From: a bacterium
GTDB taxonomy: Bacteria > Patescibacteriota > Minisyncoccia > Minisyncoccales > JAZDGI01
Length of the DNA: 64,000 bases
Direction: 5' to 3'
Assembly (NCBI GenBank): GCA_043807085.1
Contig: JAZDGI010000013.1
Location: 1,607-65,606, forward strand
In this document: positions 23,950 to 63,138 of the stretch, in pieces
Position numbering within the stretch: the first letter of the stretch is position 1
How the letters are laid out: each line of letters opens with the position of its first letter
Made by a program: the position numbers and the translations under genes
Notes under the pieces: model-generated
Databases searched by the model: none
What the model was told of the DNA's origin: nothing
What the model saw: the letters and a program-made list of their open reading frames with translations, nothing else

Positions 23950-24661
23950 TAATCAAAATTCCGCGAATAAAATTAGCTATCAGGCAATTATTTTTTTGGG
24001 TCCGCCTGGTTCGGGCAAAGGAACGCAGGCCGATCTTTTGGCTAAAAGGCTGGATTTTTATCATCTTGAAACCAGCGAGCTTATTGAGAAAAAATTATCC
24101 GGCATTAAAAGCGGCGCTTTTGAAATCGTTGACGGACAAAAATATTTTTTAGAGGAAGAAAAGCGGCTGCGGGAATCTGGCGAAATAATGAGCCCTTATT
24201 TGATTGCTTCTTGGGTGAAGAACAAAGTCCGGAGATTGGCCAACGACGGGGAAGGCGTGATTTTTTCCGGTTCGCCGCGAACGCTTCAAGAAGCTCAAGA
24301 AGTTATTCCTCTTTTGAAAGAGCTGTACGGCCGGAATAAAATTATCATAATTTCAGTCAAGCAAAATTTGGAAGTTTCCCTTCATAGAAACAGCAAAAGA
24401 AGAACTTGCTCCCTAATGCGCCACCCCATTTTGTTTAACGAAGAAACAGCCGGCCTGACGATTTGTCCTTTGGACGGTTCAGCGCTGGTGGCCAGAAAAG
24501 ACGATGACCCGGAAATAATCAAAGCCAGGCTGAAAAAATATAAAGAAAGAACTCTTCCGGTGATTAACTATCTGAAAACCCAGGACCTGATAATGAAAGA
24601 AGTGGATGGCGAAAGAAATGTGTCTGAAGTTTTCAACGATATTATCGCGAAAATAGGTTAA
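23930..24661 (+). CDS. Divergent adenylate-kinase-family NMP kinase.
   Basis: LGPPGSGKGTQA P-loop; FSGSPRTLQEAQ; lid RRTC...ICPLDG...RKDDD. Confidence 0.65.
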   Translation: MNTNLSNNQNSANKISYQAIIFLGPPGSGKGTQADLLAKRLDFYHLETSELIEKKLSGIKSGAFEIVDGQKYFLEEEKRLRESGEIMSPYLIASWVKNKVRRLANDGEGVIFSGSPRTLQEAQEVIPLLKELYGRNKIIIISVKQNLEVSLHRNSKRRTCSLMRHPILFNEETAGLTICPLDGSALVARKDDDPEIIKARLKKYKERTLPVINYLKTQDLIMKEVDGERNVSEVFNDIIAKIG

Positions 24662-43927: not shown

Positions 43928-44980
43928 ATGCTGGAAAAATTCTTAAGATTGTTTTCCGAGGATGTCGCCATTGACTTGGGTACGGCCAATTCTTTGGTTT
44001 ATGTTTCGGGCCGAGGAATCGTTATTCAGGAGCCCTCGGTAGTGGCAGTAAACCAAAAAACAGGACAGGTTTTGGCTATTGGCGTTGAGGCAAAAAAAAT
44101 GGTGGGCCGGACCCCCAGTCACATTGTTGCCACCAGGCCATTGAGATCGGGCGTGGTTTCCGATTTTGAAGTGACCGAGCAGATGCTGAGATATTTTATT
44201 GAGAAGTCCTGCAAGAAAAAATTTTTTATAAACTCAAGACCCAGGGTAATCATTGGCATTCCTTATGGAGTGACTGAGGTGGAGAAAAAAGCGGTAATAG
44301 ACGCGGGAATGTCGGCAGGAGCCAGGGAGGTTTTTTTGATAGAAGAACCTATGGCCGCGGCCATAGGTTCAAGGCTGCCTGTGCAGGATGCCGGCGGAAA
44401 TTTTATTGTTGACATCGGAGGAGGAACGACCGAAGTGGCAATAATCTCGCTGGGCGGCATTGTTTTGGCAAAAAGCCTAAGAATTGCCGGAGATAAACTA
44501 AATGAAGATATCGTGCAATACGCCCAAGAAGAATATAAATTGCTGATAGGAGAGCGAACAGCCGAAGCGATTAAAATCGGCATTGGTTCGGCTTATCCTC
44601 TGAAGGAAAAGAGAGAAATTCCGATGCGCGGCCGCAATTTGGTTACCGGCTTGCCGGAGGAGATAATCGTTTCCGACAACGATATCCGCCAGGCTATGGA
44701 AAAGTCAGTCAAGCAGATTGTTGAGGAGATAAAAATGGCTGTTGAAGAAACTCCGCCCGAGCTTTTGGCCGACATTATGGTTGACGGAATTCATCTTTCA
44801 GGCGGCGGTTCTTTGTTGCGCGGTTTGAGCACCTTGATTCAGAAAGAAACCAAAATTCCCACTAAGGTTATTGAAGACCCAATGACCGCCGTGGTCAGGG
44901 GAGCTGGCGTGGTGCTGGAGAATTTAGACGAGCTGGAAGAAGTATTAGTGGAGACAGAAGAATTAGAACCGCCAAAGTAA
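43928..44980 (+). CDS. mreB: Actin-like protein MreB, paralog 2.
   Basis: AIDLGTANS; DIGGGTTEVAIIS; 350 aa. Confidence 0.85.
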   Translation: MLEKFLRLFSEDVAIDLGTANSLVYVSGRGIVIQEPSVVAVNQKTGQVLAIGVEAKKMVGRTPSHIVATRPLRSGVVSDFEVTEQMLRYFIEKSCKKKFFINSRPRVIIGIPYGVTEVEKKAVIDAGMSAGAREVFLIEEPMAAAIGSRLPVQDAGGNFIVDIGGGTTEVAIISLGGIVLAKSLRIAGDKLNEDIVQYAQEEYKLLIGERTAEAIKIGIGSAYPLKEKREIPMRGRNLVTGLPEEIIVSDNDIRQAMEKSVKQIVEEIKMAVEETPPELLADIMVDGIHLSGGGSLLRGLSTLIQKETKIPTKVIEDPMTAVVRGAGVVLENLDELEEVLVETEELEPPK

Positions 44981-45407: not shown

Positions 45408-46175
45408 GTTAGACATCGGATGTCTAACATACTACAATAAAGCATATGATAAGAAAAATTCAATTTACTCCAGGCTCGTATTATCACATCTATAACAGAA
45501 GTAATGACGAACGGTCGATATTCCTTGATGAAAAAGACTATGCCCGATTTCTGTTTTTAATTCTTTTTTACCAAGCGTCAGTTCCCCTTTATAATCTTGG
45601 CCTCCAGACCTCTTATTTTGTTAAACATTCAATGTTTAATATATCTGCAAAAACTCTTCAAAATATAATAATGGCAAGAAGAGTAGAGCTTAATTCTTTT
45701 GCAATAATGCCCAATCATTTTCACCTCTTTTTGCAAGAAAAAGATAAAAAAGGAATTTCTTTCTATCTTCAACGAATCCAAAATGGATACGCGAAATATT
45801 TTAATGCAAAACACGCGAAAAGGGGACATCTCTTCCAGGGCGCTTTCCGCGCCGTCCCCGTAGAAACAGACGAGCAACTTCTCTATCTCTCGGCGTACAT
45901 TCATCGTAATCCAAGAGAAATAGCGGAATGGAAAGATAAAGAAGCAAAATACCCGTGGTCTAGTTATCAAGATTTCATCGGAAAGAATCGTTGGAATGAA
46001 CTTTTAAGACCAAACATTATTCTTGATCACTTTTCTGGCGCCAAGGATTATTACGAATTTGTAGAAACAAGTACTGCGAAAATAAAACCCAGCGAGCTTA
46101 AAACATTCGCTAAAGACTTTTTTCTTGAGGATGTTAGACATCGGATGTCTAACATATCATCGGATGTCTAACATA
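45408..46175 (+). mobile_element. REP-associated tyrosine transposase unit: RAYT gene flanked by perfect REP palindromes (gttagacatcggatgtctaac).
   Basis: The identical 21-bp palindrome occurs at 45408-45428 and 46133-46153, with an extra partial copy at 46158-46174. The unit lies between gatC and gatA. Confidence 0.75.
45446..46171 (+). CDS. REP-associated tyrosine transposase (IS200/IS605-like Y1 HUH transposase).
   Basis: HUH motif NHFHLFL; catalytic Tyr in SAYIHRNP; 241 aa. The 3' end reads through the REP copies. Confidence 0.8.
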   Translation: MIRKIQFTPGSYYHIYNRSNDERSIFLDEKDYARFLFLILFYQASVPLYNLGLQTSYFVKHSMFNISAKTLQNIIMARRVELNSFAIMPNHFHLFLQEKDKKGISFYLQRIQNGYAKYFNAKHAKRGHLFQGAFRAVPVETDEQLLYLSAYIHRNPREIAEWKDKEAKYPWSSYQDFIGKNRWNELLRPNIILDHFSGAKDYYEFVETSTAKIKPSELKTFAKDFFLEDVRHRMSNISSDV

Positions 46176-48131: not shown

Positions 48132-48202
48132 CGCGGGATAGAGTAGCAGTAGCTCGCGGGTCTCATAAGCCCGAGGCCCCCGTGCAAATCGGGGTCCCGC
48201 AA
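48132..48202 (+). tRNA. Initiator tRNA-fMet (CAT).
   Basis: Near-colinear with E. coli tRNAfMet; C1-A72 mismatch (CGCGGGA/TCCCGCA); GGG/CCC run in the anticodon stem; loop CTCATAA. Confidence 0.75.
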
Positions 48203-48210
48203 CATTTATT

Positions 48211-48282
48211 GCCGGCGTAGCTCAGTGGTAGAGCAATGCTTTCATAAGGCAGTGGTCGTCAGTCCGAATCTGACCGCCGGCA
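48211..48282 (+). tRNA. tRNA-Met (CAT), elongator; a lysidine tRNA-Ile cannot be excluded.
   Basis: Acceptor GCCGGCG/CGCCGGC; D-arm TAGCTCAGTGGTAGAGC; anticodon loop TTCATAA. Confidence 0.7.
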
Positions 48283-48301
48283 TTTGTCGAATTATTTATT
48301 T

Positions 48302-48376
48302 GGGCCCATAGTGTAGCCTGATTAACACGTCTCCCTGTCACGGAGAAGATCAGGGGTTTAAATCCCCTTGGGCCCG
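48302..48376 (+). tRNA. tRNA-Asp (GTC).
   Basis: Acceptor GGGCCCA/TGGGCCC; anticodon loop CTGTCAC; T-arm AGGGGTTTAAATCCCCT; followed by a T8 run. Confidence 0.75.
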
Positions 48377-48475
48377 CTTTTTTTTATTGACAACACTCTC
48401 TATTGTGTTAAAAGAGAATCAAGCGGGAGGGAGTACCTTCCCAATTAAATTTGACAAGAAAGGAGGTGATAGGTA

Positions 48476-48661
48476 ATGCCGGGAGCGATAGTCTTTACCG
48501 ATAGAATGACTGGAAGAATGGCCGAAGAGATTAGTAGGCAGACGGGTGAGCCAATAAGCTCTGAAAAAATCAGGGATATGCTAGAAAAGCCGGGCCCAGA
48601 AGAATTGATAGTTGAGGCGATTGTGGCGCGATTAAAGACGCCAGTTGGGTCGTCTTTGTAA
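48476..48661 (+). CDS. Small hypothetical protein (61 aa) at the 5' edge of the GC-shifted island.
   Basis: Strong SD aaaggaggtg 8 nt upstream; no recognisable motif. Confidence 0.4.
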   Translation: MPGAIVFTDRMTGRMAEEISRQTGEPISSEKIRDMLEKPGPEELIVEAIVARLKTPVGSSL

Positions 48662-48679
48662 AAAACAGAAAGGAAAGAT

Positions 48680-48895
48680 ATGGCGATAACGATTAGGGAT
48701 CTTCCTCTCGGACAAGGCGACATTACTCTTTCTTTCCGTAACAGAAAAAAAGAGAGAGTGAGAGGCTTGGTGGTTTTGCGTGGACGGAGAAAATATTTCA
48801 TTGCTCGAAATTCGCCCAAAGAGTCTTTCGGCCCTGGCACTTGCGTGGAAGATATTTGGTCTTTGAAAGGAAGTGCAAGACAGAAAAAAGCGTGA
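48680..48895 (+). CDS. Small hypothetical basic protein (71 aa).
   Basis: SD-like gaaaggaaag; 19 nt after the previous ORF; no recognisable motif. Confidence 0.35.
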   Translation: MAITIRDLPLGQGDITLSFRNRKKERVRGLVVLRGRRKYFIARNSPKESFGPGTCVEDIWSLKGSARQKKA

Positions 48896-48926
48896 GTCAG
48901 TAATAGAAAGAAGGAGTAAAAGGAAA

Positions 48927-49910
48927 ATGGAAGCAAGTAGTTTCGTTAACAGGTACTTTAAACGGGTGGCAAGCACTGAGTCAGTCCTCTGCGTTGGTTT
49001 GGACCCCACTCCCGAGCACGTGCCGCTCGATATGCGGAACGGGAATATTATTGGCGATATTGAGAGATATCTCCGCAAGGTTATTAGCATCGCCGCTCCG
49101 TTGGTGCCTGTCGTCAAGACTCAAGTCGCTTACTACTCTGCTCTCGGTCCAGAAGGCGAGGTAATGCTTAAAAGATTGATAGCCTACGCCCACGCCCTGG
49201 GGTTGCTTGTTATTCTTGATGCCAAGCGCGCGGACATCGGCGAGACCATGGAGCAGTACGGCAATGAGGTGTTCGGCGAATACGGGGTAGACGCTTGTAC
49301 CTTTGTTCCGTATCTCGGGCCTACTTTCAACCCGTCGTGGATGAAGTGGCTGGCACAAGGCCGGATGGTTATTTCCATGATTAGGATCAGTAATCCGGAG
49401 GCCGCGATACTCCAGGACCTTGAGCTGAAAGAAAGCGGACTCAAAGTTTACGAGTACTTGGCGGAGCTTGTGGCCGCTTGGAATGCTAAAGTCGTTAAGG
49501 AAACCAGTGGCTTAGGTGGTGTTGGCGGTGTCGTCGGGGCGACTTGGCCAGAGCAGGCGCCAAGATGTCGTGAGCTCGCCGGCGACGAAGTGTTCTTTCT
49601 AACTCCTGGCTACGGCGCCCAGGGTGGCGGAGCCGATGGGGCCGTCGCTGGGCTGCCAACCATCCCTAAGAAGGTAGATACCCTGGAGGTGGTGGGTGGT
49701 AGAAAGCTAATGGGCACCGTGAACAGTTCACGGGGCATCACGCTAACAAGCTGGTGGGACCCGAAAGCGAAACAGCCGCGAGAGGGGAAAGCGCTTGACT
49801 TAGTCGAGGCTGCGATTAAGGCTGCGAATACCGACCTTAACGCCGCGCTCGCACGCAAGCTCGGTATCCCTATATTGGTATCTCCTTATAGTGTAGTGTC
49901 TTTCGCATAG
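48927..49910 (+). CDS. pyrF: Orotidine 5'-phosphate decarboxylase, type 2 (actinobacterial/archaeal-like). Start chosen at MEASSF, after SD aaggag.
   Basis: LCVGLDPTPEH, VKTQVAYY, ILDAKRADIGETM, RISNPEA, GVVGATWPEQAP and LTPGYGAQGG match type-2 PyrF blocks. Confidence 0.8.
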   Translation: MEASSFVNRYFKRVASTESVLCVGLDPTPEHVPLDMRNGNIIGDIERYLRKVISIAAPLVPVVKTQVAYYSALGPEGEVMLKRLIAYAHALGLLVILDAKRADIGETMEQYGNEVFGEYGVDACTFVPYLGPTFNPSWMKWLAQGRMVISMIRISNPEAAILQDLELKESGLKVYEYLAELVAAWNAKVVKETSGLGGVGGVVGATWPEQAPRCRELAGDEVFFLTPGYGAQGGGADGAVAGLPTIPKKVDTLEVVGGRKLMGTVNSSRGITLTSWWDPKAKQPREGKALDLVEAAIKAANTDLNAALARKLGIPILVSPYSVVSFA

Positions 49911-49981
49911 GTAATCACTGAATAGGCGGCGGGGCGCGACGCGCGACCCGCCGCCACCAAAAACTCAAAAGGAGGTAAAAG

Positions 49982-50746
49982 ATGGGTGTTTTGATTGAGA
50001 TTTCCGATGACCACTTGGAGACACTTCGCAGATGCGGAGGATACTATGAATGTCCTAAGGATAGTAAGGGGCGTAGGATGGGACCCTTAGTCGGTTACGC
50101 CGGGAAATATCCGGGCCCTGATGGAATGGAGAAGCAATGGGTAGGGGATGTTTATGCGAATTTCGCAAAGGCAGACGAACACCCAAACGTGCTTTACAAC
50201 TACGCAACTTGCATGAACGTGAGGTTGTTAGGGTCAGTAATCGACAACATCGATGTATTCTGCGGTACGCCGATAGGTGGTTACAATTTCTCGGTAATTC
50301 TCGGGTGGACCTATAATCGCCGCGTCGTTAAAGCGGAGAAAAAAGTGACCGCTCTTGCCACTGAAAAAACGCGTGAGCAAACCGAGCTAGTCTTCGCCCG
50401 GCATGACATTGAAAGGGGGGTACGTTATGCGATCGTGGAGGATGTATGTAATAATTTCTCCACAACCGAGACGTTGATCGCCTTAATTATGTCGCTCGGG
50501 GGAAGCGTTACCGCTATCGTATGCGAACTGAACAGGTCACTCGACTTCGAGGATTACTACTATCCATCGAAAGTCGCCGGGGGACGTCTAATTCCGGTCG
50601 CCAGTCTGGTACGGAAGCCGATTCCGGAATACAGACAAGACGACCCCGCCGTGATAGACGATATCAGAATCGGTAATGTCGTCTGGAAGCCCAAAATCGA
50701 ATGGCCTCGCTTAATGAAAGCGATGGCAGATTCTCGCAACTATTGA
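49982..50746 (+). CDS. pyrE: Type I phosphoribosyltransferase, putative orotate phosphoribosyltransferase (PyrE-like).
   Basis: PRTase PRPP-binding motif YAIVEDVCNNFSTTETLIAL; FCGTPIGGYNF loop; strong SD aaaaggaggt; sits between pyrF and pyrD. Confidence 0.5.
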   Translation: MGVLIEISDDHLETLRRCGGYYECPKDSKGRRMGPLVGYAGKYPGPDGMEKQWVGDVYANFAKADEHPNVLYNYATCMNVRLLGSVIDNIDVFCGTPIGGYNFSVILGWTYNRRVVKAEKKVTALATEKTREQTELVFARHDIERGVRYAIVEDVCNNFSTTETLIALIMSLGGSVTAIVCELNRSLDFEDYYYPSKVAGGRLIPVASLVRKPIPEYRQDDPAVIDDIRIGNVVWKPKIEWPRLMKAMADSRNY

Positions 50747-50897
50747 GGTTCGGCCTCGATAGACGGCCCAAAGGGATTAAACGAATTTAATCCCCGCGGG
50801 CTTTTCTTTTTATTTAAATATGCTAGTTTCGGGGAAAGGGGAGGGATGGCACCTGGATAGCTCCTTCTCAATTTTAAAAGAAAGGACAAGGTTAGAA

Positions 50898-51821
50898 ATG
50901 ATCAAATTGAGCAATGGACACGAGTTGGAATTCCTGGCCGCGTCTGGTTCTTTGGCTTTTGACGGACGAGGCTGGCCGTGGGAATGGCCGCTTCGGTGGT
51001 TGGGGCTGCTGGATCCTTATCTTTTTACCATCGTGACCAAGACCATAATGCCGGAGCCCTGGAGGGGTAACCTTCGGTGGACTCATCCCTGGGATGTGGT
51101 GAAGTTTATATCCGAAGAGGGGAAGGAAATCCATCCGATTAAAGCGTTAACGAATCCTGCCTCAATTGGCGGAGTAATAAACGCAATTGGCTTGACCGGG
51201 CCGGGCGTTGAAACGTGGATAGAAAATGATTATCCTAAAATTGAGCGATCTGGACTTAAGGTGATTGTTTCAATCACCAGAGAGAGGGGGCAGAGCTGTC
51301 GTGGTATGGTTAAGAGGCTAAGCGGTCTTAAAAACGTTGTGGGGATTGAGTATAATTCCTCTTGCCCGAATGTTGGCCCCATTCTTTTAGATAGCCCAGA
51401 GATAGTGATCAGAAATTGTTGCGAAATAAAGGGGGAGTCTGACTATCCTGTTTTGTTAAAGCTTGGTTACGCACAGCCGTACCTTGAGATTGCCATGGCA
51501 TTACAGGGTACAGTTGAGGCAATCAGCATCAATACCGTTCCTTGGAAAACAATTTTTGGCGGAAAAATTTCTCCCTTGGCGAAGTACGGCGGAGGAGGAG
51601 TTTCGGGACCTGTTGCCAAGCCGATTATCTGGAAAATGATTTCCGAGCTAGCTCGGGAGATATCCATTCCGGTTATCGGCGCTGGTATTTGGGAGTACGA
51701 AGACATTTCGCGGCTGAAGAGTTTTGGCGCTTCCGCTTTCCAAACGGGCACTTTGTTTTTGCCTTACCCTTGTCGGCCGACAAGGTATGTTAAGAGATGG
51801 CGGCAAGAGAGGGGGGGGTGA
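50898..51821 (+). CDS. pyrD: Dihydroorotate dehydrogenase, class 1(A)-like. Start chosen at MIKLSNG.
   Basis: IEYNSSCPNV (ELNLSCPN motif with catalytic Cys); GGGGVSGPVAKP; IPVIGAGIWEYED...TGTLF. Confidence 0.8.
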   Translation: MIKLSNGHELEFLAASGSLAFDGRGWPWEWPLRWLGLLDPYLFTIVTKTIMPEPWRGNLRWTHPWDVVKFISEEGKEIHPIKALTNPASIGGVINAIGLTGPGVETWIENDYPKIERSGLKVIVSITRERGQSCRGMVKRLSGLKNVVGIEYNSSCPNVGPILLDSPEIVIRNCCEIKGESDYPVLLKLGYAQPYLEIAMALQGTVEAISINTVPWKTIFGGKISPLAKYGGGGVSGPVAKPIIWKMISELAREISIPVIGAGIWEYEDISRLKSFGASAFQTGTLFLPYPCRPTRYVKRWRQERGG

Positions 51822-51964: not shown

Positions 51965-53110
51965 ATGCGGAAAAACATTGCCATAAAAGACGAAAAGGAA
52001 AACGTTTTGATTGAGGATCTGAACAAAAGAAACGATATCAAAGCGGAAAGAATAAAGAGGTTGTTAAGGCTTCCGGACCTGACAAAAAAAGAAAATTCTC
52101 CGGTTAAAATTTTGACTGACGAGATTATCAAATTGCCAAGATTTGCCGATTTTGATTTGGTTGATATTCCAAGAATAGTTACAGTAGAAAAATGTTTTGA
52201 CTTACTTAATGCGCCGAAGGATCATCCTAGCAGGAGGGAAACAGATACTTATTATCTTACAGATAAAGATATTTTAAGAACAGAAATGACCGTAATGTGG
52301 CCCTATTATTTGAGAGATAAAGAGGTTTTAGAAAGATTGGAAAAAGAAGGATATGTCGCTGCTTTGTCTCCGGGAATAGTTTTTAGAAAAGATGAAATTG
52401 ACAGAAAGCATTTTCCGGCTTTCCATCAAATAGATTTTTTGTATATTTGCCGAAAAGACCAAAGAATCATTACTTTAAAAGAATTGCAAGACGTTCAGGC
52501 CGATGGAGTTAAAATTATTTTTGGAGAAGATATAGGGTTTAGGTTTTTGGTTGATACCTTTCCTTTCACGGATCCATCCACTCAAATAGAAATTAAAGTT
52601 GGAGAGAATTGGATAGAGGTTGCAGGATCTGGTCTTGTGCATACGCAGTGTCTTAAAAATTTTGGATTAGATCCGGAAGTTTACAACGGCTGGGCCGGTA
52701 CTTTTGGAATTGATAGACTCGCTATGATAAAAATGGGGATTCCTGACATTAGAATACTTTGGTCGGATGACCCAAGGATTACCAGCCAGTTCAAAGACAT
52801 AAATAGCAAGTATAAAGAAGTAAGCAAATACCCGGAAATTTCAAGAGACATTTCTTTTGTCATTGATAAAAATATAAATTTGAATAATTATTACGAAATT
52901 GTCAGAGATTTTGCCGAGAATTTGATAGAAGAAGTGAGGCTTATAGACAGCTACGAAGATGAAAAAAAGTTTGGCAAAGACAAAAAGAGCTACACTTTCA
53001 GGATTGTTTATCGGTCTCCGGAAAGAACATTAAAGAATGATGAAGTAAATAAAATTCAGGAAGAAATAAGAAACAAAACAAAGCAAGATTTAAATGCCGT
53101 CTTACGTTAA
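51965..53110 (+). CDS. pheS: Phenylalanyl-tRNA synthetase, apparently a single-chain form: PheS catalytic core fused to a C-terminal FDX-ACB anticodon-binding domain.
   Basis: DHPSRRETDTYY motif 1 region; FRKDEIDRKHFPAFHQIDFL; C-terminus YPEISRDISFVID...RTLKNDEVN resembles the PheT/mitochondrial PheRS FDX-ACB domain. Confidence 0.7.
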   Translation: MRKNIAIKDEKENVLIEDLNKRNDIKAERIKRLLRLPDLTKKENSPVKILTDEIIKLPRFADFDLVDIPRIVTVEKCFDLLNAPKDHPSRRETDTYYLTDKDILRTEMTVMWPYYLRDKEVLERLEKEGYVAALSPGIVFRKDEIDRKHFPAFHQIDFLYICRKDQRIITLKELQDVQADGVKIIFGEDIGFRFLVDTFPFTDPSTQIEIKVGENWIEVAGSGLVHTQCLKNFGLDPEVYNGWAGTFGIDRLAMIKMGIPDIRILWSDDPRITSQFKDINSKYKEVSKYPEISRDISFVIDKNINLNNYYEIVRDFAENLIEEVRLIDSYEDEKKFGKDKKSYTFRIVYRSPERTLKNDEVNKIQEEIRNKTKQDLNAVLR

Positions 53111-55095: not shown

Positions 55096-55284
55096 ATGCC
55101 TTCATTCAAACTTGTAAATTTTTTAAAAGAAGTTAAATTGGAATCAGCAAAGGTTAATTGGCCTACCAAAAACCAGACGATAAAATATACTTTGGCTGTC
55201 ATAGGAATATCTTTGGTTATCGCCGTGTTTTTGGGCGGCATAGATAAAATTCTCCAGTTCGTTCTGAATACGTTTATTCTGTAA
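55096..55284 (+). CDS. secE: Preprotein translocase SecE.
   Basis: 62 aa; single C-terminal transmembrane segment; precedes nusG. Confidence 0.8.
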   Translation: MPSFKLVNFLKEVKLESAKVNWPTKNQTIKYTLAVIGISLVIAVFLGGIDKILQFVLNTFIL

Positions 55285-55291
55285 ATAAACA

Positions 55292-55837
55292 ATGCCAAAA
55301 CAGCAACTGCCCCAAGAAAGAAATTGGTATGTCATCCATACTTATTCCGGATACGAAGACGCCGTGGCCAGCAATTTGAAGCAGCGGATTGAGTCTTTGG
55401 GCATGGAAGACAAAATTTTCAACGTTATTGTCCCAAAGGAAAAAAAGATTAGAATAAAAGATGGCAAGAGAAAGGTTACCGAAGAAAAGATTTATCCGGG
55501 ATATGTTTTAGTGGAAATGGTTGTGACCGATGATTCTTGGTATGTGGTCAGAAACACGCCCAATGTTACCGGTTTTGTGGGGGCCGGAACAACTCCGGTG
55601 CCGGTTTCAAAGTCAGAAATTGAAAGCCTTAAAAAGAGAATGGGGGTGGATGAGCCTCAATACAAAATTGAAGTGGAAATAGGGGATTTGGTAAAAATTA
55701 TTGACGGCCCTTTCAAGGATTTTGACGGAAAAGTGTCGGAGATTGACGCAGAGCGGGGCAAAGTTAAAATATTGGTTAATATGTTCGGTCGAGATACGCC
55801 CGTAGAACTGGATTCATTGCAAATCAAAAAAATATGA
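55292..55837 (+). CDS. nusG: Transcription antiterminator NusG.
   Basis: NGN domain [11 protein letters not shown]; KOW motif. Confidence 0.9.
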
Positions 55838-56253
55838 AGAAGATAAAAGCAATAGTTAAGCTTCAAATTTCCGCCGGACAGGCTACGCCGGCGCCGCCCG
55901 TCGGCCCGTCTTTAGCCACTCAAGGAGTGAACATTATGGATTTCTGCCAGAAGTTTAATGAATTGACCAAGAATCAGGTCGGCTTTAAAATTCCAGTAGA
56001 GATTACGGTTTACGAAGACAGGACTTATACCTTAGTTTTTAAACAACCGCCCGCTTCGGAGTTATTGAAAAAAGCGGCGGGCATTGAAAAGGGTTCTGGC
56101 CAGCCCAATAAAGTGAAAGTGGCTAAAATAACCAAAGAGCAGTTAAAGAAAATTGCCGAGCAAAAAATGGCCGATTTGAATGCCAGCAGTATTGAAGGCG
56201 CAATGAAGATTATCGCCGGCACAGCCCGCCAAATGGGCATTGAAATAGAGTAA
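55834..56253 (+). CDS. rplK: 50S ribosomal protein L11.
   Basis: 139 aa; [18 protein letters not shown]. Confidence 0.9.
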
Positions 56254-56258
56254 TAACT

Positions 56259-57101
56259 ATGGAGAAGAAAAGTCTCATTTTATATCTCCCTGTTTTGCAC
56301 AGGGGGTATTTAGAATTTTTAGAAAAAGAAAAGGATAAAATCTCTAATGTTTATATTATGGACGAAAATCTCCAGAAGGAGCTTTCTGAATTTAGTCCGG
56401 ATATTGCCGCTATTGATAGCGAAGGAACTATCAAAATTTTGAATGCGATTGGCATAACCAATACGGCAAGCGTTTCTTTGGATAATATTGGGAAAGTTGC
56501 TCAAAGCGGCGGCACAATTCTTATTGACGATGAAATTTCGCGAAATTTGGCTAAGAAATATTTGAAAGATAAAGACGTAGAGTGGCGAACGGTTTTTTTC
56601 CGCCACGACAAGAAAGAGGTTCTTGTTGAAAAACCGCCAGAAAACGTCGTCGTCTCAAAAGACCCATTTGATGTTGGAATGATGAACGAGGCCCGCAAAG
56701 AAGCGCAGAAAACAGGGGATTGGTGGCGACAAATCGGAGCGGTTTTGGTAAAAAATAAAGAAATTTTAATCTGCGGCTACAATAGAGACTTGCCTTCAGA
56801 CCACACGCCATATCAAGTTGGCGAAGCTAGAGACTTTTTTAAGGCCGGGGAAAGACAGGAATTAGCAAGTACTATTCATGCCGAACAAAACATTGTCGCT
56901 CAAGCTGCCAAAAAAGGGATTTCCATTGAAGGAGCATCTCTTTATGTTACCACCTTTCCTTGTCCGGTTTGCGCCAAATTAATCGCTTGCTCTGGTATAA
57001 AAAATCTTTATTTTAGCGAGGGCGGTTCCAATTTTGACGCTCAAAAAGTCCTAGTTTCTGCTGGAGTCAAAATCATTTGCGTCCCAACAAATTTTATGTA
57101 G
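56259..57101 (+). CDS. dCMP deaminase (ComEB-like) with a ~130-aa N-terminal extension of unknown function.
   Basis: C-terminal HAEQNIV...PCPVCAKLI zinc motif; the N-terminal 130 aa carry no recognised motif. Confidence 0.7.
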   Translation: MEKKSLILYLPVLHRGYLEFLEKEKDKISNVYIMDENLQKELSEFSPDIAAIDSEGTIKILNAIGITNTASVSLDNIGKVAQSGGTILIDDEISRNLAKKYLKDKDVEWRTVFFRHDKKEVLVEKPPENVVVSKDPFDVGMMNEARKEAQKTGDWWRQIGAVLVKNKEILICGYNRDLPSDHTPYQVGEARDFFKAGERQELASTIHAEQNIVAQAAKKGISIEGASLYVTTFPCPVCAKLIACSGIKNLYFSEGGSNFDAQKVLVSAGVKIICVPTNFM

Positions 57102-57110
57102 AATAAGGGC

Positions 57111-57932
57111 ATGAAACAATATTTGGATCTATTAAAATATGTTTTGGAGAATGGCGAGAGGAAGGGTGATCCCCAAGGAGTGGGAAATATCGCCGTTTGC
57201 GGCTATCAGATGAGGTTCAAAATGGATGACGGCTTTCCCTTATTGACAACTAAAAAAATGCCTTTAAAATCCATTATTTACGAACTTTTATGGTTTTTAA
57301 AGGGCGATACTAATGTGAAATACCTCCAAGACCACGGAGTGACTATTTGGGACGAGTGGGCTACTCCAGAGGCTTGCGCAAAATACGGTTTTCCTACTGG
57401 CGAATTAGGCCCGATTTACGGCGAAAAATGGCGGGCTTGGAAAACAAGAGACGGCAGAACGATCGATCAAATATCCAATGTGATAAAAGAGTTAAAAGAA
57501 TTTCCAGACACGAGAAGGCTGGTCGTAACAAGCTGGGATCCGGAAGACGTTGACAAAGTTTTCGTCGCTCCCTGCCATTGTTTTTTCAAGTTTTTCCACG
57601 CCCAAGGGAAATTATCCCTGCACTTATTCCAAAGAAGTTGCGATGTATTTTTGGGGGTGCCCTTTAATATCGCTTCTTATTCGTTGCTTTTAATGATGTT
57701 GGCTCAAGCGACCGGTTTGAAAGCCCACGAATTTGTCCATACGTTGTCAGATACCCATATTTATTTAAATCATATTGAGCAGGTAAAACTTCAGTTAACT
57801 CGGGAACCGAAACCTTTGCCTAAAATAATTTTAAATCCAGAAATAAAAAATATCTTCGATTTTGATTACGAAGATTTTAAACTAGAAGGTTATGATCCGT
57901 ACCCGGCAATTAAGGCTGAGATCGGCATCTAG
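57111..57932 (+). CDS. thyA: Thymidylate synthase ThyA.
   Basis: [11 protein letters not shown]...[22 protein letters not shown] is near-colinear with E. coli ThyA. Confidence 0.9.
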
Positions 57933-58369
57933 CCGATAGGAAAATTGACGGTTAGGGACCTGCTTGTTTTTTTATTTATTTTAGGAGAAATGATATGAAA
58001 ATGGATATGGGCCACCGAAGCTCCTGTAAAATCAGTATCGCCGAATCTCATGCAAATCGCCCCGCCTTTTATTTTAAAGTTTTTAATCGCCCAATTAGTT
58101 AAAAAAGAAACGTCCTCAAAATCATTTTTTTTCAATTCGGAAAAATTTTCATAATGTTTCTTCCCGACGATTAAAAGATGCTCGATGGTATTTTTATACG
58201 GCCAGCTGTTGTTGGTCAGAAACCAATTTCCCTTTGTTTTATAAATTGGTTTTTTATGGTATTTGAAATTTTCTGGACAAAAAGGGCATCTGCCGGTTTT
58301 GGCGATTTTTTCAATTACTTTTTTATACTCTCCCTTTCTGGCGTTTTTAGTATCGACAAATTTTTTCAT
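57929..58369 (-). CDS. HIT-family nucleotide hydrolase with an N-terminal CPFCP.
   Basis: Histidine triad HIHFHII; 146 aa. Confidence 0.7.
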
Positions 58370-58917
58370 AAAGCCTGTTGCCCCTTCTTCGTCATATTAG
58401 ACAGCATTGCTTCAAGGTGTGTTTTCATCATTCTCTCGATGATTTCAGTGGTGGATGTTTTTTCGGCTTGCCTCGGGAAAATAACCACTTCGTCGGAATA
58501 TGATTTTATATTTTTGATCTGCTCTTCGGGATAGGCTTCGGGAGTGGCCACGAAAAAGTTGGGCCTTATTACTTTGATCAGTTCGTATTGCCATTTTCCT
58601 TCCTCGTCTATGTCGTCAATCAAAGTGACGTAATCCACGCATTCCTGATATTTCAACATTTCCATTCTTTCTTCTTGGGGAATGACTGGTCTCAATTTAT
58701 TCTTTTTATACAATTTTATTCCTCTGTCGCTGTCTACGCCAACAACCAACACGTCGCCATGCTCTTTTGCTCGAATCAAGTACCTTAAGTGCCCAATATG
58801 AAGCATGTCCCAGGAACCTACGGTGCAGACTATTTTGTGTCCCAGGGTTTTATGGGCGTCAATGATTTTTTTCAGCTCCTGATAATCTTGAATAATATGG
58901 TTATTTTGCACTTTCAT
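58366..58917 (-). CDS. Cytidylyltransferase-family nucleotidyltransferase (TagD/RibL-like).
   Basis: GSWDMLHIGH (HxGH motif); KTSTTEI (ISTT motif); 183 aa. Confidence 0.6.
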   Translation of the reverse strand: MKVQNNHIIQDYQELKKIIDAHKTLGHKIVCTVGSWDMLHIGHLRYLIRAKEHGDVLVVGVDSDRGIKLYKKNKLRPVIPQEERMEMLKYQECVDYVTLIDDIDEEGKWQYELIKVIRPNFFVATPEAYPEEQIKNIKSYSDEVVIFPRQAEKTSTTEIIERMMKTHLEAMLSNMTKKGQQAL

Positions 58918-58940
58918 ATATTTTAAGATAGTATATTATT

Positions 58941-59420
58941 ATGATTATATCAATTATCGCCGCCATAGGCAACGATCGTGTTATCGGAAAAAATAACAAG
59001 CTTCCTTGGAATTTACCTGAAGATATGGAACATTTTAAGAAATTGACCATGGGCAAACCCGTAATTATGGGGCAGAGAACCTTTGAATCAATAGGGAGGC
59101 CCTTGCCCGAAAGAAAAAATATTATCTTGAGCCGCGATGATAATTTTCAGACTTCGGGCTGTTTGGTTGCCAAGTCAATCGATGAAGCGCTAGAGGCGGC
59201 CAGAGAGACAAAAGCCGCCGAAGTTATGATAATAGGCGGGGAGTCAGTTTACGTGCAATTCTTGCCGTTAGCCGATAAAATGTATCTTACTGTCGTAGAA
59301 GGTGACTTTGAAGGCGATGCATATTTTCCAGAGTTTAGTTATAATGAGTGGAAGGAAACAGAAAGGGTTGATAATAATGGGTATAGTTTTATTACCTTAG
59401 AAAGGCAATATGGATTTTAG
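58941..59420 (+). CDS. folA: Dihydrofolate reductase.
   Basis: IAAIGNDRVIG, LPW and TFESIGRPLP motifs; 159 aa. Confidence 0.85.
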   Translation: MIISIIAAIGNDRVIGKNNKLPWNLPEDMEHFKKLTMGKPVIMGQRTFESIGRPLPERKNIILSRDDNFQTSGCLVAKSIDEALEAARETKAAEVMIIGGESVYVQFLPLADKMYLTVVEGDFEGDAYFPEFSYNEWKETERVDNNGYSFITLERQYGF

Positions 59421-59739
59421 AGAATATCAAAAATTAAGCAGAAAAACAGCCATATACCCGAATCTTGATAAAAATTTTATTTATCCTACTTTGGGTCTAG
59501 TAGGGGAATCTGGGGAGGTAGCCGAAATCATCAAAAGAATTATCAGGGATAATAACAATATTGTTGATGAAAAAGTAAAAATGGAATTGACAAAAGAGCT
59601 GGGGGATGTTTTATGGTATCTATCACAGTTAGCAATGGAATTTAATCTTTCTTTGGATGAAATAGCATCGGATAACATCAAAAAATTACAGGACAGAAAA
59701 GCCCGTGACTCTCTCCACGGCAAAGGCAACGAAAGATAA
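59410..59739 (+). CDS. MazG-like nucleoside triphosphate pyrophosphohydrolase.
   Basis: GLVGESGEVAE...ELGDVLWYL, the EExxE...ELGD MazG fold. Confidence 0.7.
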   Translation: MDFREYQKLSRKTAIYPNLDKNFIYPTLGLVGESGEVAEIIKRIIRDNNNIVDEKVKMELTKELGDVLWYLSQLAMEFNLSLDEIASDNIKKLQDRKARDSLHGKGNER

Positions 59740-59743
59740 AAAA

Positions 59744-60211
59744 ATGGAAAAAGAAAAATCTATTTATATTTGCGGGCCGCTTACCGAGCTGCTTCCAGAG
59801 GAGCAACAACGAGTAAAAAATTTTTATGTGAAGCTCGCCGACGCGTGCGAAGAGATAACCTGCATAAGGGCTTTCGTGCCTCACGAACATTACGATCCGA
59901 TTAAGCAGGCAAATTATACTCCCCAGCAGGTTGATGAAGCGGAGAGAAAGCAGGTTTGCGAGAACGCTTCTTTTGTTTTAGTTGTTGCGATTGCGCCTTC
60001 TTGGGGCGGTGGCATTGAAGTGGAAATGGCTAATAGAAGCGGTGTTCCTGTAATAGTTTTATGCGAGAAAGAAAAATTGGAACAAAGAAAAATTTCTCGT
60101 CTTTTACGAGGAAACCCGGCAGTTGTTTCAATAATTATCTATACATCCGAAGAAGAAGCTATTGAAAAATTACAGGAGGAATTAAGTGTTCGCGCGAGTA
60201 AGGCAATATAA
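59744..60211 (+). CDS. Nucleoside 2-deoxyribosyltransferase-like / dNMP N-hydrolase (Rcl/DNPH1-like). Start chosen at MEKEKS.
   Basis: IYICGPL N-terminal motif; GGGIEVEMANRSGVPVI (catalytic Glu context). Confidence 0.55.
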   Translation: MEKEKSIYICGPLTELLPEEQQRVKNFYVKLADACEEITCIRAFVPHEHYDPIKQANYTPQQVDEAERKQVCENASFVLVVAIAPSWGGGIEVEMANRSGVPVIVLCEKEKLEQRKISRLLRGNPAVVSIIIYTSEEEAIEKLQEELSVRASKAI

Positions 60212-60219
60212 TAAAAACT

Positions 60220-60873
60220 ATGGAATACGCCAAGCTTATAGACCAGACGTTTTTGAAGAAGGGCGCGGGAGAGGATGAGATAAAAAAAGTTTGCGAGGAA
60301 GCGAAAAAATACGGCTTCCGGGCGTTTTGTATTTATCCCGAACACACAAAATGGGCTAAAGAATTTTTGAAAGATGCGGCTGTTAAGATAACGACTTTGA
60401 TTGACGCGCCCACGGGAGTAAGCGAGACAAAAGACCGGAAAAAAATGATTGAAAGCGCGGGCAGAGCCGGCAGCGATGAAATTGAGTTAGTGATGAAAAT
60501 AGACGCTTTCAAAAATAAAAAATATGACGAAGTTTTAACCGATCTAAGGGAGCTCTGTAAGATTCTGCCGACAAAAGTCATAATTGGTTCCGGCTATTTA
60601 ACCGACGAAGAAATAAAAAAAGCCTCGGAAATGGTCAAGGAAGCCGGGGCCATTTGCGTTAAAACCGCCACGGTTGACGACCCTTTAGACAGCACGGAAT
60701 TAGTAGAGAAAGCAAAGCACATAAAAATTATGCGAGAATCAGCTCCGGGGATTTTGGTAAAAGCGTCGGGCGCCATCCGAACTTTGGCTGATTTGAAGGT
60801 GATGGTTGACGCCGGCGCGGATATTATCGGCACGAGTTCTGGCGTTGAAATTATTGAGGAATCTAAAAAATAA
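60220..60873 (+). CDS. deoC: Deoxyribose-phosphate aldolase.
   Basis: VKTATV...VKASGAIRT (Schiff-base Lys region); 217 aa. Confidence 0.8.
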   Translation: MEYAKLIDQTFLKKGAGEDEIKKVCEEAKKYGFRAFCIYPEHTKWAKEFLKDAAVKITTLIDAPTGVSETKDRKKMIESAGRAGSDEIELVMKIDAFKNKKYDEVLTDLRELCKILPTKVIIGSGYLTDEEIKKASEMVKEAGAICVKTATVDDPLDSTELVEKAKHIKIMRESAPGILVKASGAIRTLADLKVMVDAGADIIGTSSGVEIIEESKK

Positions 60874-62259
60874 ATGGCATACAAACCGACAATCGGCTTA
60901 GAAATTCATATTGAATTAAACACGAAGAGCAAAATGTTTTGCTCTTGCTTGAATAATCCTGATGAGCGCAAGCCAAATATAAATATCTGTCCGGTCTGTA
61001 CGGCCCAGCCCGGAACGCTTCCGGTAATAAACGAAGAAGCGGTCAGAAAGGTGATTAAAACCGGATTATCTTTAAATTGCCAGATTCCGGAATTTTCCAA
61101 GTTTGATAGAAAAAATTATTTCTATCCCGACTTGCCTAAGGGTTATCAGATTTCTCAATACGATAAACCGTTATGCGAAAATGGATTTTTGGAGATCGGA
61201 TCTCCGATTTTTAAGAAAATAAGAATAACAAGAGTGCATCTGGAAGAAGATACAGCCAGATTGATTCATGAAAAAGACACCTCTCTTGTTGATTTTAATC
61301 GAGCTGGCATTCCTTTGATGGAATTGGTAACCGAGCCGGATATCAATTCCGCCAAAGAGGCAAAACAATTCGCCGAGGAGCTGCATTTGATTATGCATTA
61401 TCTTGATGTTTCCGACGCTGACATGGAAAAAGGAGAAATGAGAGTTGAGGTTAATATCTCACTCTCTAAGGATTCTAAGCTGGGAACAAAAGTTGAAATC
61501 AAAAATTTAAATTCTTTTAGGTCGGTAGAGAGGGGGATTGATTACGAAATTGAAAGGCAGACAAAGGTTTTAGAATCTAAGGGAAAAGTTATCCAAGAAA
61601 CCCGCGGCTGGCTCGATGTCAAAGGGATTACGGTAAGCCAGAGAGAAAAAGAAGAGGCCTATGACTATCGGTATTTTCCAGAGCCAGACTTGCCGCCTCT
61701 TCATTTTACGAGAGAAGAAGTGGAAAGAATCAGGGTTGGAATCCCGGAGCTGCCGCAGCTCAGGCAAGAGAGGTTCATTAAAGAATATCAGCTTGACAGA
61801 GATAGCGCCGTTACTTTGGTCTACAACAAAGAGTTAGGAGATCGTTTTGAAAAATCCGCCGTAACATTGCCGAAAGACTTATTTAAAACAGCTTCAGATT
61901 TTTTAATCAATACCGAAGCGAAGAATTACGATATTCCGCCAGCTCATTTTAATCAGCTGATGGTTTTAATCAAAGATGGGAAAATATCAAATATTGCGGC
62001 TAAAGAAATTTTAACTGAAATAATTGAGCAAGATCCCTCGGCAGTAATTGAGAAAAGGGGATTGGGCCAAGTAAGCGACGTCAAAGAGCTGAAAAAAATA
62101 GCTGAAGAAATCGTAAAAAACAACCAAAAGGTTGTTGGAGATTTAAAGGCTGGCAAGGCTAACGCCCTCCAGTTCTTGATCGGCCAGACGATGGCTAAAA
62201 CCAAGGGCCGGGCCAATCCTGAGCTAGTCAGAGATATTTTGCAGAAACTTCTCGGTTAA
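60874..62259 (+). CDS. gatB: Asp/Glu-tRNA amidotransferase subunit B.
   Basis: 461 aa; GLEIHIELNT...; CxxC; MELVTEPD. Confidence 0.9.
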   Translation: MAYKPTIGLEIHIELNTKSKMFCSCLNNPDERKPNINICPVCTAQPGTLPVINEEAVRKVIKTGLSLNCQIPEFSKFDRKNYFYPDLPKGYQISQYDKPLCENGFLEIGSPIFKKIRITRVHLEEDTARLIHEKDTSLVDFNRAGIPLMELVTEPDINSAKEAKQFAEELHLIMHYLDVSDADMEKGEMRVEVNISLSKDSKLGTKVEIKNLNSFRSVERGIDYEIERQTKVLESKGKVIQETRGWLDVKGITVSQREKEEAYDYRYFPEPDLPPLHFTREEVERIRVGIPELPQLRQERFIKEYQLDRDSAVTLVYNKELGDRFEKSAVTLPKDLFKTASDFLINTEAKNYDIPPAHFNQLMVLIKDGKISNIAAKEILTEIIEQDPSAVIEKRGLGQVSDVKELKKIAEEIVKNNQKVVGDLKAGKANALQFLIGQTMAKTKGRANPELVRDILQKLLG

Positions 62260-63138
62260 ATTCTCGGCTTTTCGGTAGTCCTCAATCCATTTAATTCGTT
62301 TATCTTTTTTGAACCAGGTCATTTGCCGTTTGGCAAAATGCCGAGTGTTTTTTTTGATTCTTTCAACCGCCTCGGCCAAAGAAATTTTTTTGGTTAAATA
62401 ATCAATAATCTCTTTATATCCGATGGCGTCAAAAGCCGGCAGATTTTTGCCGTAAAGGCGAACAAGTTTTTTAACTTCCTTCATTAAGCCGTCTTCCATC
62501 ATTTTATCCGTTCTTTTTTCGATTTTTTCTATTAATTTTTCTTTGCTTGGCTCACGGCCGATAATCAGGGGGTTAAAAAGCGGTTTTCCTTTTTTTCTTT
62601 GCTGGGAAAATGGTTTCTTGGTCTTAATCGCCACCTCAAGCGCCCTGATAATTCGCCGCGGATTTTGAGGATCAACGATATAAGCCGCTTCCGGATCAAT
62701 TTCAATAAGTTCATCATAAAGGCTTCTTAATCCCTGTTTTTTAATTTTTAATTCTAATTTTTTTCTCAATTTAAAATCCGGTTTCACCTGCGGGATTTCT
62801 AAATTATCAATCACTGATTTTAAATAAAGTCCGGTTCCGCCGACTAAAAAGGGAACTTTGCCCTTTTGAATGATTTTATTAATGGCCTTAATCGCGTCTT
62901 TTTTATATTGCCAAGCAGTGTAGAGCTGATTCGGATTTTTAATATCAATCAAATAATGCTTAATCGTTTCCATGTCTTTTTTCCCGGGTTTGGCCGTGCC
63001 GATATTCATGCCTTTGTAAACCTGCCTTGAATCAGCCGAAACAACTTCGCCGCTGAATTTCTCGGCAAGCCTTATAGCCAACTCGGTTTTGCCCGAAGCG
63101 GTCGGGCCTAGTATAACAATGAGTTTAGGATTTTCCAT
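62224..63138 (-). CDS. miaA: tRNA dimethylallyltransferase.
   Basis: GPTASGKT P-loop; ADSRQVYKGMNIGTAKP. Confidence 0.9.
   Translation of the reverse strand: MENPKLIVILGPTASGKTELAIRLAEKFSGEVVSADSRQVYKGMNIGTAKPGKKDMETIKHYLIDIKNPNQLYTAWQYKKDAIKAINKIIQKGKVPFLVGGTGLYLKSVIDNLEIPQVKPDFKLRKKLELKIKKQGLRSLYDELIEIDPEAAYIVDPQNPRRIIRALEVAIKTKKPFSQQRKKGKPLFNPLIIGREPSKEKLIEKIEKRTDKMMEDGLMKEVKKLVRLYGKNLPAFDAIGYKEIIDYLTKKISLAEAVERIKKNTRHFAKRQMTWFKKDKRIKWIEDYRKAENLTEKFLQNISD

Follow-up and report, generated by a model that had tools for sequence, protein, structure and literature searches.

Operons that join thyA and folA are known in the thyB-dfrA type of Bacillus and, as frd-td-cd, in phage T4, and two routes to dUMP are established, one through dCMP deaminase and the other through dcd plus dut. 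Here we describe a locus of related content in a 64,000-nucleotide stretch of contig JAZDGI010000013.1 (assembly GCA_043807085.1, Patescibacteriota), referred to below as the window. Between positions 56259 and 60873 it carries a strongly conserved, mostly conventional thymidylate island, whose gene content is real: the eight open reading frames (ORFs) named in the initial annotation of this DNA are all present there in the ORF listing. The island shares with the described operons the core enzymes that lead from a deoxycytidine nucleotide to dUMP and on to dTMP, with recycling by dihydrofolate reductase (DHFR), and both dUMP routes alternate at its locus in relatives (loci L001 and L004 versus L048-L054). 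Unlike those operons, it occupies a fixed site between rplK and gatB, its deaminase carries an N-terminal domain (N-domain) of ~135 aa, an antisense pair of HIT and nucleotidyltransferase genes is embedded between thyA and folA, and one slot is open to interchangeable pyrophosphatases. We consider it probable that many Parcubacteria (Patescibacteria, or candidate phyla radiation, CPR) keep a housekeeping thymidylate island between rplK and gatB and that this region is its local form, the mechanism proposed below included. A literature search found no description of this gene cluster.

The window proteins were searched against the Pfam, NCBIfam, PHROG and PADLOC profiles, and coordinates were taken from the ORF listing. 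The island and its borders are as follows:

55096-55284 (+): secE, upstream border
55292-55837 (+): nusG, upstream border
55834-56253 (+): rplK, upstream border; Pfam L11 domains, TIGR01632 202 bits
56259-57101 (+): fusion of N-domain and dCMP deaminase, 280 aa; PF00383 71.8 bits, residues 141-253
56259-56678 (+): Rossmann-like N-domain of the deaminase
56679-57101 (+): dCMP-deaminase domain, same gene as the N-domain
57111-57932 (+): thyA; NF002497 409.2 bits (cutoff 327)
57929-58369 (-): HIT protein; PF01230 31 bits (cutoff 21.5)
58366-58917 (-): cytidylyltransferase-like enzyme (CTase); PF01467 CTP_transf_like 67.5 bits (cutoff 21)
58918-58940: divergent spacer of 23 nt between the CTase gene and folA
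58941-59420 (+): folA; DHFR_1 PF00186 196.3 bits (cutoff 25)
59410-59739 (+): MazG, 109 aa; PF03819 39.9 bits (cutoff 22), phrog_229 122 bits
59744-60211 (+): DNPH1/Rcl-like protein, 155 aa, resembling nucleoside 2-deoxyribosyltransferase (NDT) by predicted fold and conserved residues
60220-60873 (+): deoC; TIGR00126 157.2 bits (cutoff 117.3)
60874-62259 (+): gatB, downstream border
62224-63138 (-): miaA, converging on gatB, downstream border

All the family guesses of the initial annotation, those of MazG and the Rcl/NDT-like protein included, were borne out by profile searches or, for the Rcl-like protein, by an AlphaFold2 (AF2) model, Foldseek and conserved residues. The proposed route from dCMP through dUMP to dTMP with DHFR recycling also stood. 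Besides NF002497, ThyA matches TIGR03284 (402.6 bits versus a cutoff of 108) and PF00303 (365 bits), and its translation holds the motifs APCHCFF and DTHIYLNH; by comparison with E. coli ThyA, we take the Cys of PCH to be catalytic and the Asn of DTHIYLNH to specify dUMP. FolA, well above the DHFR_1 cutoff, lies slightly under that of NF008037 (163.9 versus 168). The deaminase domain exceeds the PF00383 cutoff of 25 and has invariant zinc motifs, HAE and PCxxC (H207, E209, C235 and C238 in the family alignment); in the PDB it comes closest, in sequence and in fold alike, to the dCMP deaminases of T4, cyanophage S-TIM5, S. mutans and human. DeoC is covered by TIGR00126 over residues 2-212 of 217.

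To assess conservation, loci were retrieved from three seeds: homologues of the fusion deaminase, the closest DNPH1-like proteins and the HIT protein (80 metagenome loci). In the HIT-seeded ratios the denominators are loci with enough flank, and complete loci are the 26 spanning rplK to gatB. The core order recurs in dozens of Patescibacteria contigs, and loci from all three seeds show it as gyrB, secE, nusG, rplK, fusion deaminase, thyA, HIT(-), CTase(-), folA, a variable part, gatB and miaA(-). The HIT gene is adjoined by thyA in 51/54 HIT-seeded loci and by the CTase gene in 62/69, with the fusion deaminase present in 49/49 and rplK in 42/46, so the clustering is not a matter of chance. Fusion deaminase, HIT and CTase occur together in 26/26 complete loci, which also hold thyA (25), folA (23), a Nudix-like gene (16), tmk (12), deoC (9), MazG (3), glyA plus folD (3) and dUTPase (2). 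The secE-nusG-rplK border is found as well in L001, L004 and L048-L054. On the other side, the border of L001, L004, L024, L048 and L050-L052 consists of both gatB and miaA and that of L049 of gatB alone; most HIT-seeded loci that extend far enough have gatB with or without miaA. In L001 and L004 the same borders enclose dcd and dut in place of the fusion deaminase, without HIT or CTase. The order folA-MazG-DNPH1-like-deoC is confined to close relatives, namely L054 and, in part, L053 (tmk for deoC) and L052 (Nudix for MazG). Conservation of the cluster in relatives, on which the initial annotation had staked its reading, was thus found for the core, whereas MazG, the DNPH1-like gene and deoC belong to a variable slot.

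The tightest-conserved partners of the deaminase are the two genes that the initial annotation had placed on the opposite strand, HIT and CTase, which are no bystanders. HIT and CTase follow the fusion of N-domain and deaminase rather than thyA or folA as such. The trio stays linked in the rearranged loci L005, L011 and L127-L134, and HIT and CTase are both missing from the dcd-plus-dut loci L001 and L004 and from the plain-deaminase locus L024. Moreover, a metagenome protein of 469 aa found on two contigs (P0270) is a triple fusion of CTase, N-domain and deaminase, its CTase part being 36% identical to the window CTase (E 2e-25). On the strength of this universal co-occurrence, joint absence and gene fusion, which together link CTase to deaminase, we infer that HIT and CTase act together with the deaminase fusion. 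In several relatives (L056, L063, L065-L067, L089, L095, L111, L112, L124 and L125) a second HIT paralogue lies on the plus strand between deaminase and thyA; these relatives keep the antisense HIT besides it, and the window has a single HIT gene.

Near its N-terminus the HIT protein has a CPFC motif; this and an HIHFHII triad are invariant in 8 orthologues (H121, H123 and H125 included), and the protein gives further weak matches to DcpS_C, CwfJ_C_1 and DUF4931_N. The CPFC motif and the weak CwfJ and DUF4931 matches hint that, of the Hint, Fhit and GalT-like branches, it may belong to the last. The CTase, with its HIGH and TSTT motifs, resembles HldC or RfaE domain II. TIGR02199, the model of that group, scores 100.5 bits, below the 181.5 cutoff, and the protein is best placed in the general CTP_transf_like family rather than the heptose-1-phosphate adenylyltransferase equivalog; its best PDB match is 5x9q (59 bits), and its phage matches are generic heptose-type transferases. 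Our best guess is that HIT and CTase handle or sense the cytidine-type nucleotide feeding the deaminase. More speculatively, and with doubt outweighing belief, CTase, HIT and N-domain could form an undescribed three-part device that supplies or controls the deaminase substrate. In one possible form, dCTP would reach the deaminase through a nucleotidylated intermediate that CTase makes and HIT resolves to the monophosphate. In another, CTase would make a small nucleotide ligand, which HIT would destroy and the N-domain would sense.

Residues 1-140 of the window fusion deaminase have no Pfam match. An AF2 model gives this domain a beta-alpha-beta topology (pLDDT about 80-90), and residues conserved across the family comprise P11, H14, G16 and Y17, within a P-V-x-H-x-G-Y stretch after strand 1, and an F-L-R-W-D motif. 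A word-indexed protein search with the N-domain alone returned one relative, and the family was collected with a full HMMER search. In it, 102/150 listed representatives at 50% identity fall within the size range of the fusion (255-330 aa), and among these 150 the domain occurs almost exclusively in the deaminase fusion, at its N-terminus. Sub-threshold matches to NARF (Nucleotidyltransferase-Associated Rossmannoid Fold, PF20299) were seen in 9/24 relatives, the best at 22 bits versus 25 (E 2e-4), and span only ~47/112 model positions; the window copy has no NARF match. In keeping with the name of NARF, the N-domain is always accompanied by a nucleotidyltransferase gene. A literature search found no description of NARF. 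In hhalign, a deep N-domain profile aligned with the CTase family at P=0.003 over 44 columns that include the HxGH helix and the following strand (reversed control, P=0.13), and a shallower profile gave nothing significant against the CTase, DNPH1-like or HIT families. From the deep-profile alignment, the N-domain may be a degenerate nucleotide-binding fold of cytidylyltransferase type in which HxGH has become HxGY, which is suggestive rather than established. Searching PDB sequences with the N-domain profile gave nothing below E=0.2, and Foldseek with the two-domain model returned matches to the deaminase domain only. At position 50 of the domain (56406-56408), 92% of 103 diverse representatives have Arg, giving a D-I-R motif; Ala takes its place (D-I-A) in the window protein and its close relatives.

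The slot after folA holds MazG in the window and a Nudix-like protein or dUTPase in relatives, with tmk, deoC, glyA plus folD or the DNPH1-like gene as optional companions. It is shown by these assignments to be usually occupied by a putative (d)NTP pyrophosphatase of one of three unrelated, interchangeable families: Nudix-like, MazG or dUTPase. These swaps, and likewise the exchange of dcd plus dut for the deaminase, resemble cases in which non-orthologous genes replace one another in a single pathway. The window MazG has the motifs GESGEVAE and ELGD in its translation, which make up the ExxE...ExxD metal motif, and along its whole length it shares 48-50% identity with phage MazG-like proteins; no PDB sequence matches it at E<=0.1. 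We assign it as a predicted small, single-domain NTP pyrophosphohydrolase in the variable pyrophosphatase slot. The commonest occupant, in 16/26 complete loci, is a Nudix-like family of ~200-217 aa (members at L049:10194-10802, L050:9758-10375, L051:10184-10789 and L052:5852-6505) that no Pfam or NCBIfam model covers at its cutoff: NUDIX matches are sub-threshold (15-18 bits) or lacking, and a GHINP...REWxEE motif resembles the Nudix box.

The true start of the DNPH1-like gene is ATG 59744, not GTG 59705. Its product has no Pfam (PF05014 included), NCBIfam, PHROG or PADLOC match, and the identical protein is labelled 'hypothetical' in an NCBI metagenome-assembled genome. At E<=0.001 the protein has 377 relatives; the 120 that were listed all lack a Pfam domain, and most of them bear the label of a Patescibacteria lineage as their source. 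An AF2 model built on the family alignment (30 sequences, 55% mean column identity) reached a pLDDT of 91.4 and a pTM of 0.87. In Foldseek against the PDB, this model matched the NDT superfamily with probability 1.00: DNPH1/Rcl (TM 0.65-0.73), then MilB, BlsM, BcmB and NDT, the top match being an uncharacterised Enterococcus protein. BlsM and BcmB were also the best PDB sequence matches (E 0.01-0.04, phmmer).

At the residue level, the segment P85-S86-W-G-G-G-I-E92, invariant in the 30 sequences, aligns with PSLGVGYE of DNPH1 in hhalign and with BlsM and BcmB in phmmer, and the motif SRLLRGNP aligns with SAMIRGA of DNPH1 (hhalign). S86, E92 and S118, all three invariant, map onto S98, E104 and S128' of DNPH1. 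In that enzyme S98 binds phosphate, E104 is the nucleophile and S128' binds phosphate from the partner subunit, and the two phosphate-binding Ser set nucleotide hydrolases apart from nucleoside transferases (PMC10603095). Invariant Y8, in the motif Y-I/V-C-G, corresponds to Y24 of DNPH1 in a register set by motif comparison (YFCG versus YICG), without a significant alignment. CMP hydrolases have Phe at the Y24 position, and a change from Phe to Tyr flips their preference to deoxy substrates (PMC10603095, PMC4081090). An invariant P-H-E-H occupies a short helix at roughly the place of the E55-H56 element in DNPH1. The catalytic Tyr and Glu, both phosphate-binding Ser and the deoxy-specifying Tyr of DNPH1 are thus conserved in a protein that differs from DNPH1 in its low identity (16-21%), in the missing PF05014 match, in having Glu for D80 and in its coupling to DeoC. 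We predict, from these residues and the model, that it is a 2'-deoxynucleoside 5'-monophosphate N-glycosidase. The DNPH1-like proteins are a new sequence family inside the known NDT superfamily, outside the curated models.

In the window and in L052 deoC comes directly after the DNPH1-like gene, and in L054 a phosphoenolpyruvate-utilizer gene stands between them. The initial annotation had set a dNMP-processing enzyme beside DeoC, and this pairing of a predicted glycosidase and aldolase holds, the window genes being 8 nt apart. Relatives of the protein at 70-77% identity (L001, L004, L005 and L052-L054) are all encoded in the island. DCTPP1, in human cells, is a MazG-type protein. Also in human cells, DCTD turns 5-hydroxymethyl-dCMP (hmdCMP) into toxic hmdUMP, and DNPH1 destroys hmdUMP (PMC13184875). 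The window encodes the same three protein types together, and by analogy its trio of MazG, deaminase and DNPH1-like protein may mirror this human DCTPP1/DCTD/DNPH1 sanitation axis. A further likeness is to the CPR and archaeal route of AMP phosphorylase, ribose-1,5-bisphosphate (R15P) isomerase and form III RuBisCO, which also brings a nucleotide sugar phosphate into lower glycolysis (PMC7304191). The window differs in using a predicted hydrolytic dNMP glycosidase plus DeoC, on the deoxyribose branch, and both genes are present in a minority of islands.

Taken together, these assignments lead us to propose the following mechanism. A deoxycytidine nucleotide would be converted to dUMP, the deaminase taking the amino group and the pyrophosphatase the pyrophosphate, in the order dCTP to dCMP to dUMP or dCTP to dUTP to dUMP. 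ThyA would methylate dUMP to dTMP, and FolA would regenerate tetrahydrofolate. The accessory genes of the window would add pool sanitation and disposal. MazG would clear unwanted dNTPs, and the DNPH1-like enzyme would split a 2'-deoxynucleoside 5'-monophosphate into base and deoxyribose-5-phosphate, its substrate probably being a non-canonical pyrimidine dNMP such as could arise from the deaminase acting on modified dCMP. DeoC would then convert deoxyribose-5-phosphate to glyceraldehyde-3-phosphate and acetaldehyde. As judged from its sequences, the island would serve chiefly to make dTMP de novo and to sanitise the nucleotide pool, rather than for salvage alone; the glyA, folD and tmk genes of relatives complete the same dTMP pathway.

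The genes are tightly packed. The spacings are 5 nt (rplK/deaminase), 9 nt (deaminase/thyA), 4 nt (MazG/NDT-like), 8 nt (NDT-like/deoC) and 0 nt (deoC/gatB), and overlaps measure 4 nt at the convergent thyA/HIT junction, 4 nt at HIT/CTase and 11 nt at folA/MazG; with the 23-nt divergent gap, intergenic distances thus run from an 11-nt overlap to 23 nt. This agrees with the packing noted in the initial annotation; a single operon of all eight genes is ruled out by the two directions of transcription. The predicted transcription units are secE to thyA, CTase-HIT on the antisense strand and folA to gatB. Promoter-like hexamers lie around the CTase/folA spacer, at 58972-58944(-) and 58869-58896(+), and promoters between these genes, if any, must overlap the adjacent coding sequences. 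The overlapping stop codons of thyA (+) and HIT (-) form a CTAG palindrome at 57929-57932, and the convergent arrangement is preserved in relatives.

Upstream of the island, at a distance of 5-8 kb, the window also contains genes for late de novo pyrimidine steps:

48873-49910 (+): pyrF; TIGR02127 185 bits (cutoff 110.6)
49982-50746 (+): phosphoribosyltransferase (PRT)-like protein; weak pyrE match, 28.8 bits
50820-51821 (+): pyrD-like protein; DHO_dh 58 bits, NF005574 106.6 bits, below cutoff

Several observations weigh against the housekeeping reading. The ComEB equivalog scores 63 bits against a cutoff of 219 on the window deaminase, and its best NCBIfam match, a local one, is to the anti-phage dCTP deaminase (71.8 versus 400); judged by sequence, deamination could take place at the level of the monophosphate, dCMP, or of the triphosphate, dCTP. 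No pyrophosphatase is recognisable in 5/26 complete loci. The promoter and terminator scan of the region gave promoter-like sites not above shuffled expectation, so the transcription units are drawn from spacing alone. In the DNPH1-like protein, the invariant residue E67 aligns with the catalytic Asp of BlsM and BcmB (phmmer), equivalent to D80 of DNPH1, a conservative Asp-to-Glu change, and the position of R23 in MilB, where an Arg or Lys recognises the hydroxymethyl group, is Thr. Its gene is absent from 26/26 complete HIT-seeded loci, and among 44 species-level loci seeded by the protein it lies away from the thymidylate genes in 40 and in the island in 4, so its pathway link is clade-specific; no other neighbour of the gene occurs in more than 9 of the 44.

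The initial annotation had read the cluster as a DNA-precursor salvage unit of an organism that makes no nucleotides de novo. In favour of such pure salvage, the CPR is described in general as lacking nucleotide synthesis (PMC7304191), DeoC belongs to catabolism or salvage, as does a dNMP glycosidase, and nrd as well as dut, tmk and ndk were not found in the window. Against this, deaminase, ThyA and FolA constitute the de novo dTMP route, to which relatives add glyA plus folD and tmk, and the island contains no nucleoside kinase, phosphorylase or transporter; and because pyrF, PRT-like and pyrD-like genes are present in the window, an inability to make nucleotides de novo is unsupported for pyrimidines. 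We regard pure salvage as unlikely. Still less probable is that the genes are neighbours through genome compaction only, with no functional coupling, HIT and CTase being unrelated cell-envelope genes. All genes of this genome are tightly packed, and the CTase is most like heptose-1-phosphate adenylyltransferases and other sugar- or alcohol-phosphate nucleotidyltransferases, yet HIT, CTase and fusion deaminase remain together despite rearrangement, HIT and CTase disappear jointly where dcd plus dut replace the fusion, and CTase is fused to the deaminase in P0270.

A phage-derived or anti-phage module, for instance one depleting dCTP by deaminase and pyrophosphatase, might be suggested by the phage-like MazG with its phrog_229 match, by the cd, td and frd genes of T4-type phages, and by the matches of the deaminase to the NCBIfam anti-phage dCTP deaminase and PADLOC dCTPase models and, weakly, of HIT to ThsC. 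The defence-model matches are limited, though, to a stretch of ~60 residues around the zinc motifs and score far below cutoff, and PADLOC gives no support for a defence system, ThyA, FolA, CTase, MazG, the DNPH1-like protein and DeoC having no match in it. A tblastn search for phage matches found none for HIT or the DNPH1-like protein. The site is fixed between ribosomal and translation genes of the chromosome in dozens of genomes, the GC content of the island genes (0.35-0.44) overlaps that of most of the window (0.38-0.44), and there is no flanking integrase or repeat, all of which makes such an origin highly improbable. We give as little credence to a pathway for modified pyrimidines of the MilA/MilB or BcmA/BcmB kind, where a free modified base results from the joint action of a ThyA-like hydroxymethylase and an NDT-like glycosidase. 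The CMP N-glycosidases MilB, BcmB and BlsM of nucleoside-antibiotic clusters share the NDT-superfamily fold and genetic linkage to ThyA-family genes (PMC4081090), and BlsM and BcmB are the nearest PDB sequences to the DNPH1-like protein. They differ from it in their ribo-specific Phe, where the window has Tyr, in Arg or Lys for hydroxymethyl recognition, where it has Thr, and in lacking the second phosphate-binding Ser (PMC10603095); moreover, the glycosidase is missing from most islands, and the window ThyA is a genuine thymidylate synthase that passes the equivalog cutoff and keeps the dUMP-specifying Asn. The housekeeping thymidylate island thus remains the reading that we prefer.

The place of the island after rplK is itself a lineage trait and not a recent insertion. 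The initial annotation had described the genes as inserted where rplA-rplJ-rplL would be expected. None of those genes was found after rplK, in the window or in any syntenic locus, and loss of ribosomal protein L1 has been reported from a Parcubacteria subgroup (10.1101/2022.01.07.475337), so the position is a feature of the lineage; junctions of rplK with the deaminase gene or dcd are common to many Parcubacteria. The check for dut, tmk and ndk advised in the initial annotation was run by tblastn within the 64-kb window, where no homologue of these genes was found, nor of dcd, rplA, rplJ or rplL. The ORF at 15-3161 (+), of at least 1048 aa from the window start and with a GC of 0.48 versus the ~0.41 typical of the window, was considered as rpoC, which would have explained the whereabouts of rplJ and rplL, and was rejected since it has no Pfam or NCBIfam match.

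Other features of the window were recorded as follows. Three tRNA genes (Met, Met, Asp) precede pyrF, and GC is raised to 0.48-0.50 over 48132-51821. An adenylate/UMP-CMP-kinase-like protein of 354 aa is encoded at 7426-8490 (+), besides the regular adk at 23930-24661 in the ribosomal cluster; it is a possible nucleoside-monophosphate kinase with a bearing on pyrimidine metabolism. The phenylalanyl-tRNA synthetase (PheRS) gene at 51965-53110 (+) encodes a single protein of 381 aa in which the class II core (tRNA-synt_2d, 173 bits) is fused to the anticodon-binding domain FDX-ACB (93 bits), the architecture of the monomeric mitochondrial PheRS; gyrB and not pheT comes next. L001 has the same fused architecture, and L048, L049 and L051 have separate pheS and pheT. 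A gene like the IS200/REP-associated tyrosine transposases lies at 45446-46171 (+; Y1_Tnp 40.8 bits, NF047646 40 bits, below cutoff). Two full-length MreB paralogues of about 450 bits each, at 39158-40156 and 43928-44980 (+), stand 4 kb apart, with genes for a DNA polymerase III delta' subunit, the ribosome recycling factor (RRF), an M50 protease and a class II tRNA synthetase between them.

The novelty of the locus is in its fixed site from rplK to gatB across Parcubacteria, in the DNPH1-like and Nudix-like families and, above all, in the invariant trio. Patescibacteria are usually portrayed as incapable of nucleotide synthesis, and here a large group of them keeps a compact, fixed dTMP-synthesis unit beside core translation genes. 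The natural swaps at one locus (dcd plus dut for the fusion; Nudix, MazG or dUTPase in the slot) help to assign functions to its uncharacterised members, and the DNPH1-like family, the ~200-aa Nudix-like family and the trio of CTase, HIT and N-domain-deaminase offer targets for biochemistry. If the N-domain does sense a ligand made by CTase and destroyed by HIT, this would stand in for the dCTP/dTTP allostery by which dCMP deaminases are classically controlled. If true, either form of the three-part device would be a new way to set the dCTP:dTTP balance in a large bacterial radiation.

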